From Candidatus Yanofskybacteria bacterium (lineage in GTDB: Bacteria; Patescibacteriota; Minisyncoccia; 2-02-FULL-40-12; IGHO2-01-FULL-4-A): DNA of 64,000 nucleotides. The notes under the pieces were generated by a model, which saw only the letters and a list, made by a program, of their open reading frames with translations, was not told where the DNA came from and searched no databases. Positions 2,930-9,309 of the stretch are shown one piece after another. The first letter of the stretch is position 1. Each line of letters starts with the position of its first letter. The DNA lies in contig JACOZV010000002.1 of NCBI GenBank assembly GCA_016181175.1, forward strand, positions 64,115 through 128,114, read 5' to 3'. A program made the translations under genes and the position numbers.

Positions 2930-3526
2930 TTAACTTTGTCCAATCAGTTTTTGGTCGGGTTTTTCCATATCGGAAATATCTTGCCTTAAAACTCCAACTG
3001 TTTTTCGGAATTCATAAAACGTTAGAGGCTCGTTGTGAAAAGATGTCCATCTTAAAAAGCATGACTTAATACGAATATAAATGAAAAAACAAACAAGGAA
3101 ACCCATTGTTCCTGCAAAAAATTTAAAACCAAGATACCCAAGAGTATAAGTAGTATCACTTACTAACATCAATGAGCGTATAAATGACCAAAGAGAGATA
3201 GCCGATAACCCCAAGAGATTTAATTTTACAAAGTAGCGTAATGCCATGCTTAAAAGCAAAGATTTAAGAGTCATTTTATACACCTGCAGCTTCGTATTTT
3301 TGTTTTCCACAATGTCTTGGATTCTATAACTGGCTATGCCCAGTTTATTTACCAAAAAAAGTTCTACGGTACGTTTGGCTATTCCTCTGATATGCTCTAA
3401 CTTAGTTTGTCTTTTTTGTTCCAATTCCGATTTTTGTTTTTCTAATTCAAGCCATTTTTTCTCTCGGGCTTCCATTAATGCCAAAGCCAACGGGTCCTGC
3501 TTAAACAAGCTTGTTGAGTTTTTCAT
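2930..3526 (-). CDS. hypothetical coiled-coil/membrane protein (paralogue of 3545-4147)
   Basis: 198 aa. The N-terminus MKNSTSLFKQDPLALALMEAREKKWLELEKQKSELEQKRQ parallels the neighbouring gene's MENQTGLIGQDVLATAIQEAEQEKIKKLELKKQEKKEELEQ. Hydrophobic C-terminal segments. Last gene of the same-strand operon. Confidence 0.55.
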   Translation of the reverse strand: MKNSTSLFKQDPLALALMEAREKKWLELEKQKSELEQKRQTKLEHIRGIAKRTVELFLVNKLGIASYRIQDIVENKNTKLQVYKMTLKSLLLSMALRYFVKLNLLGLSAISLWSFIRSLMLVSDTTYTLGYLGFKFFAGTMGFLVCFFIYIRIKSCFLRWTSFHNEPLTFYEFRKTVGVLRQDISDMEKPDQKLIGQS

Positions 3527-3544
3527 ATGATCCCCCTTTTATCC

Positions 3545-4147
3545 TTATTCAACAAGTTTCTGGCACTTGACTTCCAATTCGGCAATATTTTTTATACAGC
3601 AAGCGATAACTTTAGTCACGAGTTTGCCTAGCGGGGGTATGTTTGGATAAGAGTTCTTGAACAAAGTTTGTAAAACTTTACCTATTGAGTCTGTATTACA
3701 AACCCAATCATAAGCCACGGTAAGCATCGTCATGATTGTAAATGACATAAGCGGAATAACCGGGCTGATTAATCTGGATATTGCCATCCATCCGAGTAAG
3801 AAAGTTAGAGGGAGGGTTAACAAGGTAAATGGTTTTGTCATCCAATATATTCTTCTCCATTTTTTTAGGTCCATGATGACAGAACGCAATACTTTGATTT
3901 TTGAGTGAGTATCGTTCAGTACCCTATCAATATGTTGTGGTGTCATGTCTGCAAGTTCTTTTAAGTATTGCCTGCACAACTGATCAGGCAGGCTATTTAA
4001 ATGGATAATATAATTTTTTTCTTGTTGTTCAAGCTCCTCTTTTTTTTCTTGCTTTTTTAACTCTAATTTTTTGATTTTTTCTTGTTCGGCTTCTTGTATG
4101 GCAGTGGCCAATACGTCTTGACCGATTAATCCAGTTTGATTTTCCAT
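3545..4147 (-). CDS. hypothetical coiled-coil/membrane protein (paralogue of 2930-3526)
   Basis: 200 aa. Charged coiled-coil N-terminus, then hydrophobic helices (FTLLTLPLTFLLGWMAISRLISPVIPLMSFTIMTMLTVAY). Tandem paralogue. Confidence 0.55.
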   Translation of the reverse strand: MENQTGLIGQDVLATAIQEAEQEKIKKLELKKQEKKEELEQQEKNYIIHLNSLPDQLCRQYLKELADMTPQHIDRVLNDTHSKIKVLRSVIMDLKKWRRIYWMTKPFTLLTLPLTFLLGWMAISRLISPVIPLMSFTIMTMLTVAYDWVCNTDSIGKVLQTLFKNSYPNIPPLGKLVTKVIACCIKNIAELEVKCQKLVE

Positions 4148-4161
4148 TTTCCCCTCCTTTT

Positions 4162-4947
4162 CTATGCAATTTGTAATGAGTTAAGCATGCTCTGGAATTT
4201 TTCCAGATTGAAAAGTTCTGCTTTTTCTGTTTTGACTTCCTTGGTTTCCAGCTCGCCATCCTTGACCCGCAAAAGCCACTCTCGGCTTAAAATAATCATC
4301 AGACCGTCAATGACTTTGCTTGGCCGTCTGAAGTCAAAATAATCCCGCAGTTCTTGATGGCTGATATCGTTTGACTCAACCCCGATCAACTGCCGGAAAC
4401 TTAGCCAGCCGTCCTCGGTTTTCAAAATGTGATTCAGTTTTATGTCCATCCTGACGGTTGTCAATTTGGACATTGACCCGCAACAGCGAATACTAGTTTC
4501 TTGAACCAGGTGTTCCCAATGAGCAAATGAGCGCAGTACCGTCATCAATGTTGCATCGCGCGGTTTGAAAATTTCCGCGTATTTCTGCAAGTCGGCAATC
4601 AATGTGGGATGTGAAGGAAAACAAGTCGTTTCATCCCAGGCAGTCGGACAACTTATGAGTTCGTCATTGAGATGGCTAATTAATTTATGTTGAGCTTCAA
4701 GAGCAATGGCTACAACATTAAGAAAATCAGAATTTTTGGTCAAAAGTTTCGAGTTGCCGATGGCAATTTTTGCGCGTATGGAATTGATTAGTAGTTGTAA
4801 CTTCTGCAGGCAGTCCGCATAGTCAATAAATATTGTGTTACCATGTTTCGTAAGCGCAAGTTCCTGGTTCACTACTGTCATTCTTGCTCCCAAATTTTCA
4901 AGGATCTTAGGTTGGTTTAACATAGCACAGATAATTGTTTCCGTCAA
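4162..4947 (-). CDS. hypothetical protein (261 aa)
   Basis: ORF in the tightly spaced same-strand operon (15-nt gap to the downstream gene). No motif recognised. Confidence 0.5.
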   Translation of the reverse strand: MTETIICAMLNQPKILENLGARMTVVNQELALTKHGNTIFIDYADCLQKLQLLINSIRAKIAIGNSKLLTKNSDFLNVVAIALEAQHKLISHLNDELISCPTAWDETTCFPSHPTLIADLQKYAEIFKPRDATLMTVLRSFAHWEHLVQETSIRCCGSMSKLTTVRMDIKLNHILKTEDGWLSFRQLIGVESNDISHQELRDYFDFRRPSKVIDGLMIILSREWLLRVKDGELETKEVKTEKAELFNLEKFQSMLNSLQIA

Positions 4948-4991
4948 ATTAAAAACTCTGGATTTCCAGAGTTTAAGTAAAAGAACAAAAA

Positions 4992-5975
4992 TTAAATGGA
5001 TTCTGCCGTTTGTGTCGGTTTTAGAGCAAGTTTTTCGGTGGTAGCTTGCAGGGTCTTGAGTTTGCCCATAATTCGGCTTTGGCCGGTTTGGAGCAGTTTC
5101 TTTAGGTCTGATGAAGCGATTCTGTAATTGTTAACCAAAGTTGCCGCATCTACCGCCGTTTCAATGGCGTTGAGCGAGGCCTGGAATGTCGCCACTACCG
5201 CATCCTTTGACGCGTACATTGACTGGTTCATGTCAACCATCGTCTGCGCCGAATCACGGATTACCGCAACCGGCCGGTAAATATTAACATAGTCAAAGTA
5301 TTGGCCTACGCCGCGGTGGAAAATTTCCAGTCCGGCGGAACAAACCTTGCTTAAAGTATGTATCAGCTCTTCGCCGATGATAATGTTAGATAGTAATTGT
5401 TCCAACAACTGAATCTTGCGTTTCTCCCGCTCTTCAGGATCTAAGATGCTAAATTCTTTGTCCAGAAGGCGCGCTACTTCTTCATAGATTGGCACGCCGG
5501 CCCGTTCGGCCATATAATGCTGTAACTGTTGGGCATCCCAGTTTTCTTTTTGCGCCGTTGCGATATCAGCCGCCAGATTATCCAGATCTTCAGCTTTGGC
5601 TTGGGCACAGGCAGCAATGTTACGCAATGCGTCCTGCGTATTGTTGACGTTGGTGCGCATTAGTCGTTCAATTAGCTCAAGAACGTCGTATTCCTCGGCT
5701 ATGAATTTCACCATGCCATCGGGCAGTGAGTCGTAGAATTTTCTGGGAATTATGAAATGCAATACCTGTGCCATTAAACTCCTTGTTCTGTCAGTCGGCA
5801 GGTCAAGAGCTTTCTTGACCAGTTTGTTGTTATTCGCCAGTTCTTCTTTGCTAGCGTTCAATGCCTTCATATTTTCTTTCAAAGACCTGTCGTTGGGTGA
5901 TTGGAAGTTTCTCTTATAACTTGAAACGGAAAACTTAGAAGATTGTCTGTTGCTTGGTACAATCATGTTTGTCAT
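4992..5975 (-). CDS. alpha-helical hypothetical protein (327 aa), possibly TelA-like toxic-anion-resistance family
   Basis: Predicted all-helical with coiled-coil character (…DALRNIAACAQAKAEDLDNLAADIATAQKENWDAQQLQHYMAER…). The TelA assignment is a weak recollection of family architecture, not a motif match. Confidence 0.5.
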   Translation of the reverse strand: MTNMIVPSNRQSSKFSVSSYKRNFQSPNDRSLKENMKALNASKEELANNNKLVKKALDLPTDRTRSLMAQVLHFIIPRKFYDSLPDGMVKFIAEEYDVLELIERLMRTNVNNTQDALRNIAACAQAKAEDLDNLAADIATAQKENWDAQQLQHYMAERAGVPIYEEVARLLDKEFSILDPEEREKRKIQLLEQLLSNIIIGEELIHTLSKVCSAGLEIFHRGVGQYFDYVNIYRPVAVIRDSAQTMVDMNQSMYASKDAVVATFQASLNAIETAVDAATLVNNYRIASSDLKKLLQTGQSRIMGKLKTLQATTEKLALKPTQTAESI

Positions 5976-5989
5976 GGTTTCCTCCTTTT

Positions 5990-6442
5990 TTAGTTCGGAA
6001 AATAATAATTATCTTTGCCGTATATTGATTTTAATTTCTTTGTATGAATACGATACCAGAAACTGTAAAGCAAAAATTCATCGTAGCTGTTGTTTCTAGT
6101 ATGTAGGTTAACAAGGTCTATAGCCATCGTTATTAATCCTACCGGGTTGCTGATCACAAAAATAATTTGTATAATTGACCAAAACTTAGAGCGGTCGTAA
6201 ATCTTTTCAGCCAATAATTCTTTTTCTCTTTTTTCCAGACTGTCTACTTGATTTTTAGACAAGCCCTCAAACTTGTAAGCGAGTACGTAAAAAATATTTA
6301 AAAATTCACTTTTTCTATTTTGTATTTGAGTAGCTTGTTTAGCAGTCCGATGTTTTTCTTGCAATTCCCCTAACTTTTTCAAGAATCTTTCTTTTTCAGT
6401 ATTTGCAATTAATTTATTATCCATTGTGGCCCCATTATCCAT
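5990..6442 (-). CDS. hypothetical membrane protein (150 aa)
   Basis: N-terminal charged or coiled segment plus hydrophobic helix FWSIIQIIFVISNPVGLITMAIDLV. 15-nt gap to the next gene. Confidence 0.5.
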   Translation of the reverse strand: MDNGATMDNKLIANTEKERFLKKLGELQEKHRTAKQATQIQNRKSEFLNIFYVLAYKFEGLSKNQVDSLEKREKELLAEKIYDRSKFWSIIQIIFVISNPVGLITMAIDLVNLHTRNNSYDEFLLYSFWYRIHTKKLKSIYGKDNYYFPN

Positions 6443-6444
6443 GG

Positions 6445-6666
6445 CTATCTCCTAAAATATTTCTTGGCTATCAAATATACAGTTCCCACAACTACAGTCG
6501 GCAAGATAAGCCACGACGCGACTATCCACGCAATCCCGATCAGTCCGAAGGTGACTTTTAACGCCACATATCCGCCGATTGCCAATGCGCCAACCTTAGC
6601 CAATCCAGTCCATCGGTTTCTCGGAAAAGATATTGTCCAAGTTTCTCTTTTCGCCAGGTTATTCAT
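6445..6666 (-). CDS. small two-TM membrane protein (73 aa)
   Basis: Two hydrophobic helices, LAKVGALAIGGYVALKVTFGLIGIAWIVASWLILPTVVVGTVYLIA. Overlaps the upstream gene by 8 nt. Confidence 0.45.
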   Translation of the reverse strand: MNNLAKRETWTISFPRNRWTGLAKVGALAIGGYVALKVTFGLIGIAWIVASWLILPTVVVGTVYLIAKKYFRR

Positions 6667-6955
6667 CGTTTTTTCCTAGTTGATTCTTGTTTTTTACGTT
6701 TGCTAATATATTTTCTACTAACAGTTTTATGTTTGAAGTTGCTTGTTCGTGCGTGAAACCCATACTTATCAATTTGTCATATTGATCAAGCAGTTGTTCT
6801 TCAAAAACTTGATAATTAATTTGGGCATTGATTTTGGTTTGGATAAATTTACCCACAGCAAACATTCCAGCCGCAATTTTGATCAGGGGTTTAGCTTTTC
6901 TAAACAGCTGTTCCATATCAACGTCAGTTTTTGAAGTCGTGTTTTTTGGTGTCAT
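6659..6955 (-). CDS. hypothetical small protein (98 aa)
   Basis: ORF in the operon. Helical with one hydrophobic stretch. Confidence 0.4.
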   Translation of the reverse strand: MTPKNTTSKTDVDMEQLFRKAKPLIKIAAGMFAVGKFIQTKINAQINYQVFEEQLLDQYDKLISMGFTHEQATSNIKLLVENILANVKNKNQLGKNDE

Positions 6956-6970
6956 GGTTCCCTCCTTTAA

Positions 6971-7459
6971 TTAGTAACCGTCGTAGTCATATTCCCCATT
7001 TATGGCCTTATTTAATATTTCGTGGCAAATAAAATCCTCGCCGCACATTTTTTGTAGTTTTTTATAGATGCGGCAGTAATTAAAATTGGTAAACCGGGTT
7101 GCCAAATAAATCCACCCCAAGATAGGGACAAAACCAAATAGAATTTCCAATTTTGCCCGTGGTTTAGCTTTCGTAAGAATCAATTTGCTTAAAATTTTTA
7201 GTTTTTCAGGGGTATAGGTTTCTAACTGCTTACGGTCAAGACCATAAAAAGCATAAGCAAACCTGACAAAGCATATTGAAAAATTGATTCTTAAATGGCA
7301 TAATTTTTCGGCTTTTTTAGCGGTTGGGTTTTGTCTCTGCATGTTCATTATTTCTGCCAGAAGTTGTTCTTCAGGTTTATTTGCAATCATTTGTTCTCGT
7401 TGGTTGGTCATCGTTTGTTCTTGGACAGTAGTATTAGCATCTGTCATAATTGCCTCCAA
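6971..7459 (-). CDS. hypothetical protein with C-proximal TM helix (162 aa); first gene of operon
   Basis: TM helix ILFGFVPILGWIYLATRF. Cys/His-containing tail CGEDFICHEILNKAINGEYDYDGY. Confidence 0.45.
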   Translation of the reverse strand: MEAIMTDANTTVQEQTMTNQREQMIANKPEEQLLAEIMNMQRQNPTAKKAEKLCHLRINFSICFVRFAYAFYGLDRKQLETYTPEKLKILSKLILTKAKPRAKLEILFGFVPILGWIYLATRFTNFNYCRIYKKLQKMCGEDFICHEILNKAINGEYDYDGY

Positions 7460-7555: not shown

Positions 7556-7583
7556 AAAAAAACGGGTTTACCCGTTTTTTTTG
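7556..7583. terminator. bidirectional intrinsic terminator
   Basis: aaaaaaacgggtttacccgtttttttt is a GC stem (cgggt/acccg) flanked by A-run and T-run. It lies between the alaS stop and the operon start. Confidence 0.75.
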
Positions 7584-7593
7584 ATGAAAATTG

Positions 7594-9309
7594 TTAACTA
7601 ATGTCTGCCCTTATCCGCCGAGTACCAGCGGAGATTGATTCTTCTTTTTTTATTTTAAATTTGCCGATTTCGCCGGTGTGAGCAACATGAGGCCCTCCGC
7701 AGAGTTCACGGCTGAATGGCTTATCATCGGAGCCAATTGTGTATACCTTCACAATCGGCGGATATTTGAGTTTGAAGAAAGCCAAAGCGCCTTTTTTGAG
7801 CGCTTCTTCGTATGGCATTTCCCGCGTAGTTACCGGGAGGTCTTGATCAATGGCTTTATTCACGATTTCTTCAACTTGTTTGATGTCTTCGCTAGTCATT
7901 TTGCGTGGGAATGTAAAGTCAAATCTTAAGCGTTCTGGGGTAATGTCAGACCCGGCTTGATGCACTTCTTCGCCCAGTACTTTGCGCAATGAAGCATGCA
8001 GAAGATGTGTTGCGGTATGCAGACGTGTAACCTTGGCCAATTCTTCCTCGCTGCCGGCTTTTAATTCCCCGGTGTCCAATATTAACCCATGTCCGCCAAA
8101 TTTTTTTTCTGCGCCGGCACGTGATTTGGCCTGGTGTTTTTTAAATTCCTCATCAAACGCTTCACGAGTTAGATTTTTGGCTTTTCCTGAATCTTTAATG
8201 CTTTCGTAAGGTAAACCGTAACTCTCATAAAGTTTAAAAGCGGCTAACAAATCAACAATTTCTAATTTATTTAATTCTGCCAAACCACGCGACATCGTTT
8301 TCCAAAATTTTTCGGCTTCTTCTTTGAATACCTCCCGTATTTTATTCTCGTCCAAATTGGCATAGAAATATTTATATTCGTGAATGACAGAGTTCAATAT
8401 CTCATAAAGATTGGCGGTATCATTTCTTTTTACTATGATTCGACGTATCAAACGTCTCAAAACATAGCCCTGATCTTTATTTGAAGGTAAAACTCCGTCA
8501 GAAATAAGAAAAACAACTGCCCTAGCGTGGTCAGCAATGATTCTCGGTAGCCCATTTCCAAAAGCAAAGAGGTCTGTTTCAAAAATATTTTTTTTGTTTT
8601 GGACTGCCATTGCCAGCCGCTCTAGCCCCATACCGGTATCCACGCCCCGCTTCTTTAGGGGTTCAAATTTAAAATCTTTTGTACAATTATATTCATTAAA
8701 AACAATATTCCAAATTTCAACACCTTTAACATATATTTCTGTTGTCGGTCCGCAGGGACCCTCGTCTCCGGTGGGACCCCAAAAATTATCACGCAATCCA
8801 TTTATTCCTTTTCTCGCCTCTATTTTTATGTTTGGGTCAATTTTCTTCCAAATTTGTTCCGAATCTTTATCTGTTGGCACGGGGTCGGCTTTAATTTTTT
8901 TTAATTCAAATATCTCATGCGTGTCTGCTCCGCCAAATACCGAGATATAATCAATCTCTAACCCCATTTCCTTGGTGATAAATTCATGGGCGTATTCAAT
9001 CGCTTCTTTTTTCCAGTAACCGCCGAAACTGAAATTCCCGAGCATTTCAAAGAAAGTAAGGTGCGATTCGTCCCCCACCTCGTCTATATCAGAGGTACGG
9101 ATGCATTTTTGGATGGATGCGGCGTTGAGAGAACCAAAATCTTTCATCGGATCGGCTTCGCCGGTATAGTATGGTTTGAACTGCTGCATGCCGGCGGTAG
9201 TAAAAAGCACCGATGGATCATTCGGCAAAAGCGAGCTTGATGGAACAATCTTGTGTCCCCTATCTTCAAAAAACTTTAGGAATTTTTTGCGTATCTCAAG
9301 GTGTGTCAC
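7594..9309 (-). CDS. alaS: alanine--tRNA ligase, short form (571 aa: catalytic, tRNA-recognition and editing domains; no C-Ala domain)
   Basis: N-terminus IRKKFLKFFEDRGHKIVPSSSLLPNDPSVLFTTAGMQQFKPYY is the AlaRS class II signature. The C-terminus has editing-domain motifs HTATHLLHASL and CGGPHV. GTG start at 9309. Confidence 0.85.
   Translation of the reverse strand: MTHLEIRKKFLKFFEDRGHKIVPSSSLLPNDPSVLFTTAGMQQFKPYYTGEADPMKDFGSLNAASIQKCIRTSDIDEVGDESHLTFFEMLGNFSFGGYWKKEAIEYAHEFITKEMGLEIDYISVFGGADTHEIFELKKIKADPVPTDKDSEQIWKKIDPNIKIEARKGINGLRDNFWGPTGDEGPCGPTTEIYVKGVEIWNIVFNEYNCTKDFKFEPLKKRGVDTGMGLERLAMAVQNKKNIFETDLFAFGNGLPRIIADHARAVVFLISDGVLPSNKDQGYVLRRLIRRIIVKRNDTANLYEILNSVIHEYKYFYANLDENKIREVFKEEAEKFWKTMSRGLAELNKLEIVDLLAAFKLYESYGLPYESIKDSGKAKNLTREAFDEEFKKHQAKSRAGAEKKFGGHGLILDTGELKAGSEEELAKVTRLHTATHLLHASLRKVLGEEVHQAGSDITPERLRFDFTFPRKMTSEDIKQVEEIVNKAIDQDLPVTTREMPYEEALKKGALAFFKLKYPPIVKVYTIGSDDKPFSRELCGGPHVAHTGEIGKFKIKKEESISAGTRRIRADIS

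Follow-up and report, generated by a model that had tools for sequence, protein, structure and literature searches.

Do eight adjoining genes that carry no functional annotation form a system of their own, and if so, of what kind? The question is raised by a gene cluster on the minus strand (positions 2930-7459) of a 64,000-nucleotide (nt) stretch of Candidatus Yanofskybacteria DNA (contig JACOZV010000002.1, positions 64,115 to 128,114), hereafter called the window. The Patescibacteria (candidate phyla radiation, CPR), to which this organism belongs, account for a large share of bacterial diversity and live with tiny genomes as parasites or epibionts, and most of their lineage-specific genes have no assignment. 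Indeed, 54,343 lineage-specific clusters of unknown function have been catalogued in Patescibacteria (PMC9132574). In this study we report that the cluster is a real eight-gene operon and that its genes very probably form one functional module. Judged by sequence, profile and available fold searches, no component fits any described family, so the module is formally of a new kind.

An operon of eight genes and its recurrence

Open reading frame (ORF) calling places eight co-directional ORFs with short spacers in 2930-7459 (Table 1). An exact-sequence look-up identified them as the NCBI genes HYT61_02225 to HYT61_02260, which lie on a 142-kb contig of a metagenome-assembled Candidatus Yanofskybacteria genome, with identical starts and all named "hypothetical protein". 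The first-pass annotation of this DNA had described nine minus-strand genes here; the co-directional run does fill the interval, but no ninth non-overlapping minus-strand ORF of at least 40 amino acids (aa) is found in it. The same annotation gave spacings of -8 to +45 nt. From the coordinates, the spacers from g1 to g8 are in order 15, -8, 2, 14, 110, 14 and 18 nt; the overlap and the short spacers are therefore as described, but the one between g5 and g6 is longer, and shrinks to 44 nt with a TTG start. Both borders are as first drawn, with a hairpin at the end of alaS upstream and, near 2930, a second, strong hairpin followed by a T-run directly after g8. Finally, g6 encodes 239 aa and not the 261 aa first proposed, because its ATG at 4881 stands behind GGGAG.

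The promoter and hairpin calls are pattern or consensus matches only, and the total of promoter-like sites in the region does not exceed the shuffled expectation. Because a hairpin and a promoter-like site lie between g5 and g6, g6-g8 may have a promoter of their own; the hairpin may act as an internal attenuator or terminator, and the cluster may comprise two transcription units, g1-g5 and g6-g8.

Neighbourhoods were compared by local iterative searches, ORF clustering over all loci and profile-profile comparisons, further loci (L numbers below) being contributed by metagenome scans and contig look-ups. Genes of the window are written in lower case, and families with capitals. The gene-neighbourhood check proposed in the first-pass annotation did not refute its reading: proteins of the G5, G6, g2 and G1/4 types accompany one another across related genomes. 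In 19 distinct loci G5 has a G6 homologue as its neighbour or only a few genes away, and this pairing spans G5 proteins from 90% down to about 20% identity with the window, examples at the distant end being L040 (complete 923-kb genome CP066690.1) and L032. Loci lacking G6 are mostly short or cut contigs. No G6 was detected in L034 and L039; the 330-aa protein adjoining G5 in L039 is not detectably G6-like, and a 198-aa protein in L030 is marginally so (hhalign 39%). The flanking genes vary by lineage (alaS/infA, secA, secG/RNase J, rpsP, a sigma factor or prfB-ftsEX). Since the order of the genes changes from one lineage to another, as do the housekeeping genes around them, the association is not mere inherited synteny, and no integrase or transposase was found near the cluster. 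Our confidence that the genes form one module comes from this recurrence of G5-G6, g2 and G1/4, together with the tight co-directional arrangement between a promoter-like site and terminators.

Two of these neighbourhoods deserve description. In two distant lineages the cluster adjoins prfB-ftsE-ftsX, in differing orders (L036, 2930-10418; L040, 6001-13038), an adjacency that could be due to chance or to a link with cell division or envelope functions. In the distant locus L034 (238-1921) G5 lies directly downstream of genes for a Prok-JAB protein (E 4e-5, HxH...S..D), for an E1-like protein of the ThiF type and for a 72-aa protein that has GG close to its C-terminal end, a trio that looks like a ubiquitin-like conjugation or sulfur-carrier set.

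The distribution of G5, the signature protein, was determined in three ways. A word-indexed search returned 42 relatives of g5 at 44-100% identity, all without Pfam domains, and the named sources were all Yanofskybacteria, Parcubacteria or Patescibacteria. A full HMMER profile search over 1.84 billion representatives gave 121 clusters at 50% identity, mostly of 300-370 aa, the shorter ones looking like fragments, and no large known family joined them. In a pattern-based scan, G5 was found in 3 of 185,579 species genomes. Thus G5 is a small, discrete, lineage-restricted family, whose named sources all belong to the Patescibacteria/Parcubacteria.

Sensitive searches place none of the eight proteins in an ordinary family, so that the refuting outcome named beforehand did not occur. 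None of g1-g8 has a significant match in Pfam, NCBIfam, PHROGs or PADLOC (in PADLOC-DB 2.0 the best E-values, 0.011-0.053, concern coiled-coil stretches only). No catalytic family was matched in any library, in agreement with the initial statement that the cluster lacks a recognisable enzymatic motif, and Pfam and NCBIfam scans revealed, in the cluster or its accessory proteins, no domain of the kinds usual in effectors or sensors, such as a nuclease, nucleoside triphosphatase (NTPase) or protease. Nothing significant came from Pfam scans of accessory proteins encoded in related loci or of the F6/F45 proteins described below, nor from comparing G5, G6 and F6, as sequences and as profiles, with all PDB chains. 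A tblastn search of 50,697 phage records with g5 and g6 as queries was empty, as was a search of IMG/VR with the G5 profile, and literature searches yielded no description of these proteins. Within the module, profile-profile tests (hhalign) of G5 against G6, G1/4, G7/8 and g2, of G6 against F6, F45 and F65, and of G1/4 against G7/8 all gave probabilities of 2% or less. A helix-Gly-[ILV]-helix element that G5 seems to share with G1/4 and G7/8 has no statistical support and is not claimed; the same holds for a loose L-[IV]-x-x-[DE] motif close to the start of many of the proteins.

Constant core and variable partners

In three Yanofskybacteria loci, the window, L007 and L035, the cluster occupies a common position (alaS, cluster, a 565-aa gene, infA, rpsM). 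Given as window-L007, window-L035 and L007-L035, identity is 90, 27 and 28% for g5 (compared with L007 687-1721 and L035 5892-6935), 76, 71 and 77% for g6, 28, 26 and 47% for g4, 35, 34 and 69% for g8, 58, 58 and 74% for the 565-aa neighbour, and 88, 91 and 94% for infA. On these values G5 is normally constrained like translation factors, and the membrane partners diverge very fast. The L035 G5 looks like a replacement by a distant version, because it is 27-28% identical to both others, though L035 and L007 are the closer pair for the other genes. A further gene, X, lies between G5 and G6 in L007 (1759-2802) and L035 (7084-8004) and is absent from the window (4882-4991). It encodes 306-347 aa with a membrane N-terminus and a coiled coil, the two copies being 63% identical, and in the window g6 follows immediately on the sequence (LENLG[GA][KR]-M) that leads up to X in the relatives.

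Two layers can accordingly be distinguished, since between the window and L007 g5 and g6 keep 90% and 76% identity but g4 and g8 only 28% and 35%, and since partners are duplicated, truncated, lost (gene X) or swapped for the soluble F6/F45 proteins. The first is a constant, presumably cytoplasmic core made of the elongated, all-helical G5, the alpha/beta protein G6 and the g2 protein of about 98 aa. The second is a variable layer of duplicated, fast-diverging small proteins that vary by lineage, represented in the window by g1, g4, g3, g7 and g8.

By hydropathy, g5 is soluble without any hydrophobic segment, and it is highly conserved. Its AlphaFold2 model, built on a 21-sequence alignment, is all-helical (predicted local distance difference test, pLDDT, 69.8; predicted template-modelling score, pTM, 0.47), with the best residues at 100-230. 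The helical character first assigned to this 327-aa protein is thus retained; its supposed kinship with TelA is considered further on. In P0130 and P0155, two distant G5 homologues, a Gly/Ala-rich hydrophobic N-terminus of two segments replaces the first ~95-130 residues, a fusion that hints that G5 works at the membrane. These membrane hairpins are similar in kind to g3, but homology is not detectable.

The partner g6 is likewise soluble, with no hydrophobic segment by hydropathy. The AlphaFold2 model of G6 (11 sequences) is a confident alpha/beta structure (pLDDT 84.2, pTM 0.83) that begins with two helices, continues in a sheet of long antiparallel strands and ends in a helix. The structure check suggested by the first-pass annotation was made with Foldseek for G5 and G6, and neither model has a significant PDB match: nothing reached E<=0.001 for G5, and the best match of G6, CapZ (E 0.04, template-modelling (TM) score 0.15), was treated as noise. 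Against the viral BFVD, G6 had no match at E<=0.001. G6 is a probable new fold. Its conserved motifs are LNDE, WD..tG[FL]PShP[ST]..AD..Y, SF..W, C[CA]CG and VGV.SDD..H, and residues N72, D73, W82, P89, D97, W122, G167 and L178 are invariant. These residues, with the second and last of the motifs, suggest a specific binding or catalytic surface. The CxCG cysteines are not essential, as they are lost in the close relatives P0166 and P0167.

Among the small proteins, g2 is amphipathic and rich in Gly/Ala in its N-terminal part and carries the motif GF[TS]xE[EQ]A. It has homologues in L035 (E 6e-15, 47% identity) and L036 (E 4e-6), and belongs to a family g2/F9/F44 (hhalign g2-F44 86%, F9-F44 97%) whose genes either lie immediately upstream of G5 or separate it from G6. 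By hydropathy g2 shows no clear transmembrane segment, so that the three small membrane proteins first counted are g1, g3 and g4 and do not include it. The proteins g1 and g4 each have one hydrophobic segment with P-x-x-G in its middle (P-x-x-G-W in g1), and g1 combines a helical N-terminal domain with a basic C-terminal tail at the end of which stands the motif Y..K+L.K..G.DF. The two form another pair of paralogues (26% identity, E 6e-13) beside g7/g8 (26% identity, E 2e-10), which was correctly recognised at first but is not the sole one. Including F79 (hhalign 98%), the G1/4 family, which conserves P-x-x-G-W within the hydrophobic segment and whose tail motif reads Y..[YH]R+.L+K.YG.DYFP, is present in 13 loci in one to three copies. 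In L001 both tandem copies start with the same residues (MSNALVLQNKRD); such shared terminal residues in tandem paralogues could reflect docking peptides or gene conversion. Finally, g3 (67% identical to its L035 copy) has a basic N-terminus followed by two hydrophobic segments, by hydropathy a likely hairpin.

The paralogues g7 and g8 have charged N-termini and hydrophobic C-terminal halves, as first described, with two to three hydrophobic segments; in g7 a conserved N-terminal peptide is followed by a charged helical region and by hydrophobic segments at 109-144. Apart from the window, the only loci in which g3 and G7/8 can be detected are L007 and L035, both from close Yanofskybacteria relatives. 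In secA-adjacent loci three tandem soluble F6 paralogues are found with the related F45 (hhalign 98%), the F6 family occupying for instance 5611-7510 in L018, and L040 unites G5 and G6 with small membrane proteins and two copies of F6 in one locus. G7/8 and F6 have conserved ends, formed by the N- and C-terminal 15-30 residues: pairwise identity is 0.70 (N-terminus) and 0.62 (C-terminus) in G7/8 and 0.63 and 0.88 in F6, as against 0.12-0.36 in the middles. Decayed copies occur as well. L035 has a 73-aa truncated G7/8 (8744-8965) that keeps only the conserved N-terminal peptide, and in L015 (2229-2833) an F6 gene is split into pieces of 103 and 73 aa.

Table 1. Features of the cluster and its borders in the window.
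Feature	Position	Strand	Description
alaS terminator	~7556-7583	.	A8-CGGGT-AAA-CCCG-T7, symmetric A-run/stem/T-run; upstream cluster border
sigma-70-like promoter candidate	7535-7507	-	TTGACA-17-TATACT, 11/12 consensus positions; precedes g1
g1 (HYT61_02260)	6971-7447	-	158 aa, G1/4 family; ATG 7447 behind GGAGG
g2 (HYT61_02255)	6659-6955	-	98 aa, small soluble protein
g3 (HYT61_02250)	6445-6666	-	73 aa; 8-nt overlap with g2
g4 (HYT61_02245)	5990-6442	-	150 aa, G1/4 family
g5 (HYT61_02240)	4992-5975	-	327 aa, G5 family; signature protein of the cluster
hairpin between g5 and g6	4974-4953	-	AAACTCTGG-AAAT-CCAGAGTTT, then T-rich run; pattern match only
promoter-like site upstream of g6	4947-4919	-	TTGACG-17-TATGTT, extended TG; pattern match only
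g6 (HYT61_02235)	4162-4881	-	239 aa, G6 family; ATG 4881 behind GGGAG
g7 (HYT61_02230)	3545-4147	-	200 aa, G7/8 family
g8 (HYT61_02225)	2930-3526	-	198 aa, G7/8 family
intrinsic terminator-like hairpin	2931-2912	-	AAACCGC-ATATAC-GCGGTTT, then T8; cluster end, directly after g8

The genes on either side were also inspected. The upstream neighbour is alaS (Pfam tRNA-synt_2c, E 7e-96, and tRNA_SAD). This gene (7594-9309) is short, encoding 571 aa (596 aa in L035) with the catalytic and second additional domains and no long C-terminal region. Beyond it, the interval 9478-11533 holds four tRNA genes, for His, Arg, Pro and Gly, distributed over both strands; interspersed with them are an ORF for a 164-aa HNH-type endonuclease, whose end overlaps tRNA-His, and a 250-aa ORF with a helix-turn-helix domain. 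Downstream, at 1172-2869, the 565-aa membrane protein, which was scanned against the same four libraries as g1-g8 without a match regarded as significant, is weakly similar to PHROG 6 baseplate wedge (E 7e-6) and to a GlxA beta-barrel (Pfam, E 0.0012). Its gene adjoins infA in the three Yanofskybacteria, has its own promoter-like TATAAT, and does not travel with the cluster elsewhere.

What the module may do

We prefer to read the module as a scaffold or regulator with a tethered core, a tentative proposal to which we allow somewhat less than an even chance. The membrane proteins would insert so as to leave nearly all of their mass in the cytoplasm, and would hold G5, G6 and g2 at the inner face of the membrane by means of helical N-terminal domains and conserved peptides at their ends. 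A link to the membrane is suggested by the hydrophobic segments of g1, g3, g4, g7 and g8 (hydropathy detects none in g2, g5 and g6) and by the hydrophobic N-termini of P0130 and P0155, and docking peptides by the termini of G7/8 and F6, which are far more conserved than the middles. The resulting complex would be a membrane-bound scaffold or regulator of envelope or membrane organisation, and neither an enzyme pathway nor a surface structure. Signals of co-transcription, paralogy, recurring co-occurrence, the lack of known domains, the predicted folds and the hydrophobic segments are what was observed; physical association, topology and function are what we infer. The first-pass annotation had suggested a membrane-associated multi-component assembly, possibly a contact system. 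The conserved, co-occurring genes and their hydrophobic segments favour the former suggestion, but the membrane link is not universal and the G5/G6/g2 core is soluble. A contact system is unlikely, because none of the eight products has a signal-peptide-like N-terminus and nearly all residues are predicted, by hydropathy and charge, to be cytoplasmic.

Several points weigh against the tethered-core proposal. The topology is inferred from hydropathy and charge alone, and the confidence of the G5 model is moderate only (pLDDT 69.8, pTM 0.47). In many related loci (type B) no membrane protein adjoins the core, and the soluble F6/F45 stand in for g7/g8, so that membrane tethering may not be an essential feature. 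The invariant polar residues N72, D73, W82, D97 and H175 of G6 could form a catalytic or ligand site, and the word scaffold would then be wrong. Moreover, the turnover of partners and the replacement of G5 in L035 fit a conflict system at least as well.

A bolder version, doubtful as it stands, would make G5/G6/g2 the core of a previously unrecognised, Parcubacteria-specific, membrane-associated machine that reads short conserved terminal peptides of interchangeable, fast-diversifying partners (G1/4, G7/8, F6/F45), with G6 as a new fold. If true, it would pair a constant engine with variable clients, as in secretion and conflict systems, yet without any known ATPase or secretion component.

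The main rival to the tethered core is a conflict module, toxin/immunity-like or anti-phage, in which the small membrane proteins or the F6-type paralogues would be effectors or immunity proteins subject to diversifying selection, and G5/G6 a conserved sensor or adaptor. We regard it as unlikely. Its patchy, narrow distribution (the 3 genomes and 121 clusters given above), the paralogues arrayed in tandem whose ends are conserved and whose middles vary, the decayed copies (truncated G7/8 in L035, split F6 in L015), the gain or loss of gene X, the replacement by a 27%-identical G5 in the syntenic L035 and the Prok-JAB/ThiF/72-aa trio adjoining G5 in L034 would all suit such a system. However, no PADLOC match and none of the usual effector or sensor domains (nuclease, NTPase, protease) were found, the surroundings are housekeeping genes with synteny kept in three Yanofskybacteria and no integrase or transposase nearby, and the phage and IMG/VR collections gave no match. 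Furthermore, between the window and L007 G5 is conserved like infA and rpsM, which is unusual for genes in an arms race.

Less likely than a conflict module are a relationship with Psp or TelA proteins and a ClyA-like role. In the former, improbable case G5 would be a very divergent member of TelA or of PspA/IM30/ESCRT-III and the operon Psp- or Lia-like, with the small membrane proteins standing for PspB/PspC or LiaI. The operon logic is alike, a soluble long-helix protein being encoded with several small membrane proteins as in pspABCD, and some G5 homologues are membrane-anchored. But g5 matches no Pfam family at E<=1, hence neither TelA (PF05816) nor PspA_IM30 (PF04012), and among 63 diverse G5 members scanned at E<=0.1 no Pfam family occurs in more than two, with TelA and PspA_IM30 absent among the 25 families listed out of 64. 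The kinship with TelA that had first been considered possible for the 327-aa protein is thereby not borne out. Profile searches against PDB sequences were empty, hhalign of G5 against E. coli PspA gave 0.8% probability, and no PspA, Vipp1 or ESCRT-III protein is among the 50 Foldseek matches listed for G5.

It is very improbable that G5 is a component of a ClyA-type alpha-pore-forming toxin that breaches a host membrane, the other proteins being its partners or chaperones. Proteins of the ClyA family (AhlC, XaxB, PaxB, SmhB, ClyA, Hbl-B, YaxB) do dominate the best Foldseek PDB matches of G5, with probabilities up to 0.95, and a parasitic life on methanogenic archaea has been reported for Yanofskybacteria (PMC10936435). 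However, these matches (E 0.017-0.3, query pLDDT 69.8) stay above E 0.001, with TM scores of 0.14-0.30 and root-mean-square deviations of 13-35 A, and they look like generic long-helix matches, because designed helix bundles, F-BAR domains and a SNARE protein score similarly. A hydrophobic head was not found in G5: the top 19-residue Kyte-Doolittle window is 1.09 in g5 (family median 1.16) and 1.93 in E. coli ClyA (residues 185-203). Furthermore, hhalign of the family profile against E. coli HlyE/ClyA gave 0.4% probability, PDB-sequence profile searches returned no toxin, and neither a signal peptide nor, in the neighbourhood, a secretion system was found. Finally, it is hardly credible that unrelated hypothetical genes merely share an operon, although compact CPR genomes often co-transcribe unrelated genes and g3 and g7/g8 have no detectable homologues beyond close relatives, since G5, G6, g2-type and G1/4-type genes stay together across lineages despite changed order and flanks.

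Lineage-restricted hypothetical operons are common in Patescibacteria genomes, which calls for caution. Nevertheless, a module that is kept, duplicated and remodelled in a genome of ~1 Mb is likely to be important for a parasite or epibiont lifestyle, with membrane organisation, division, host interaction and defence as candidate roles. With the core pair G5/G6 defined, a G6 model that has no structural relative and the variable partners named, anonymous hypotheticals become a testable system, and the parasitism of Yanofskybacteria on methanogens (PMC10936435) offers a setting in which expression and localisation could be tested.

Comparison with known systems

TelA (PF05816) has a similar length (about 330-400 aa class) and is all-helical, a non-specific likeness; g5 differs by the lack of a PF05816 match at E<=1, and no ter or kla genes are nearby. 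The ClyA family (ClyA, Hbl/Nhe, AhlABC, SmhABC, XaxAB/YaxAB) resembles the cluster in that its members are elongated long-helix bundles of ~300-350 residues that act in multi-component systems, and they give the top, though weak, Foldseek matches of G5. Unlike them, G5 has no hydrophobic head or beta-tongue, TM scores do not exceed 0.30, there is no profile similarity and no export route is evident; moreover, the partner proteins of the cluster are not G5 paralogues.

The Psp and Lia systems (PspA with PspB/PspC/PspD; LiaH with LiaI) share with the cluster the combination of a soluble long-helix protein and very small membrane proteins without an enzyme, and, by prediction, the placing of every part at the cytoplasmic face of the membrane. 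They differ in that G5 has no sequence or profile similarity to PspA and is ~100 residues longer, that G6 (239 aa) and g2 have no counterpart in them, and that no PspF- or LiaRS-like regulator is present in the cluster.

The last comparison is with the substrate complexes of Type VII secretion, in which LXG toxins with Lap proteins, and PE/PPE proteins with EspG, combine helical and alpha/beta partners. In contrast to these, the cluster has no WXG100, LXG or EspG match in Pfam or Foldseek searches, and the neighbourhoods examined contain no EssC/EccC (FtsK/SpoIIIE-type) ATPase or other secretion gene. The likeness lies in the composition and the setting: as in those complexes (compare PMC10801868), a long helical protein is accompanied by helical partners of ~100 aa and a soluble alpha/beta partner, and the genes adjoin arrays of fast-evolving paralogues.

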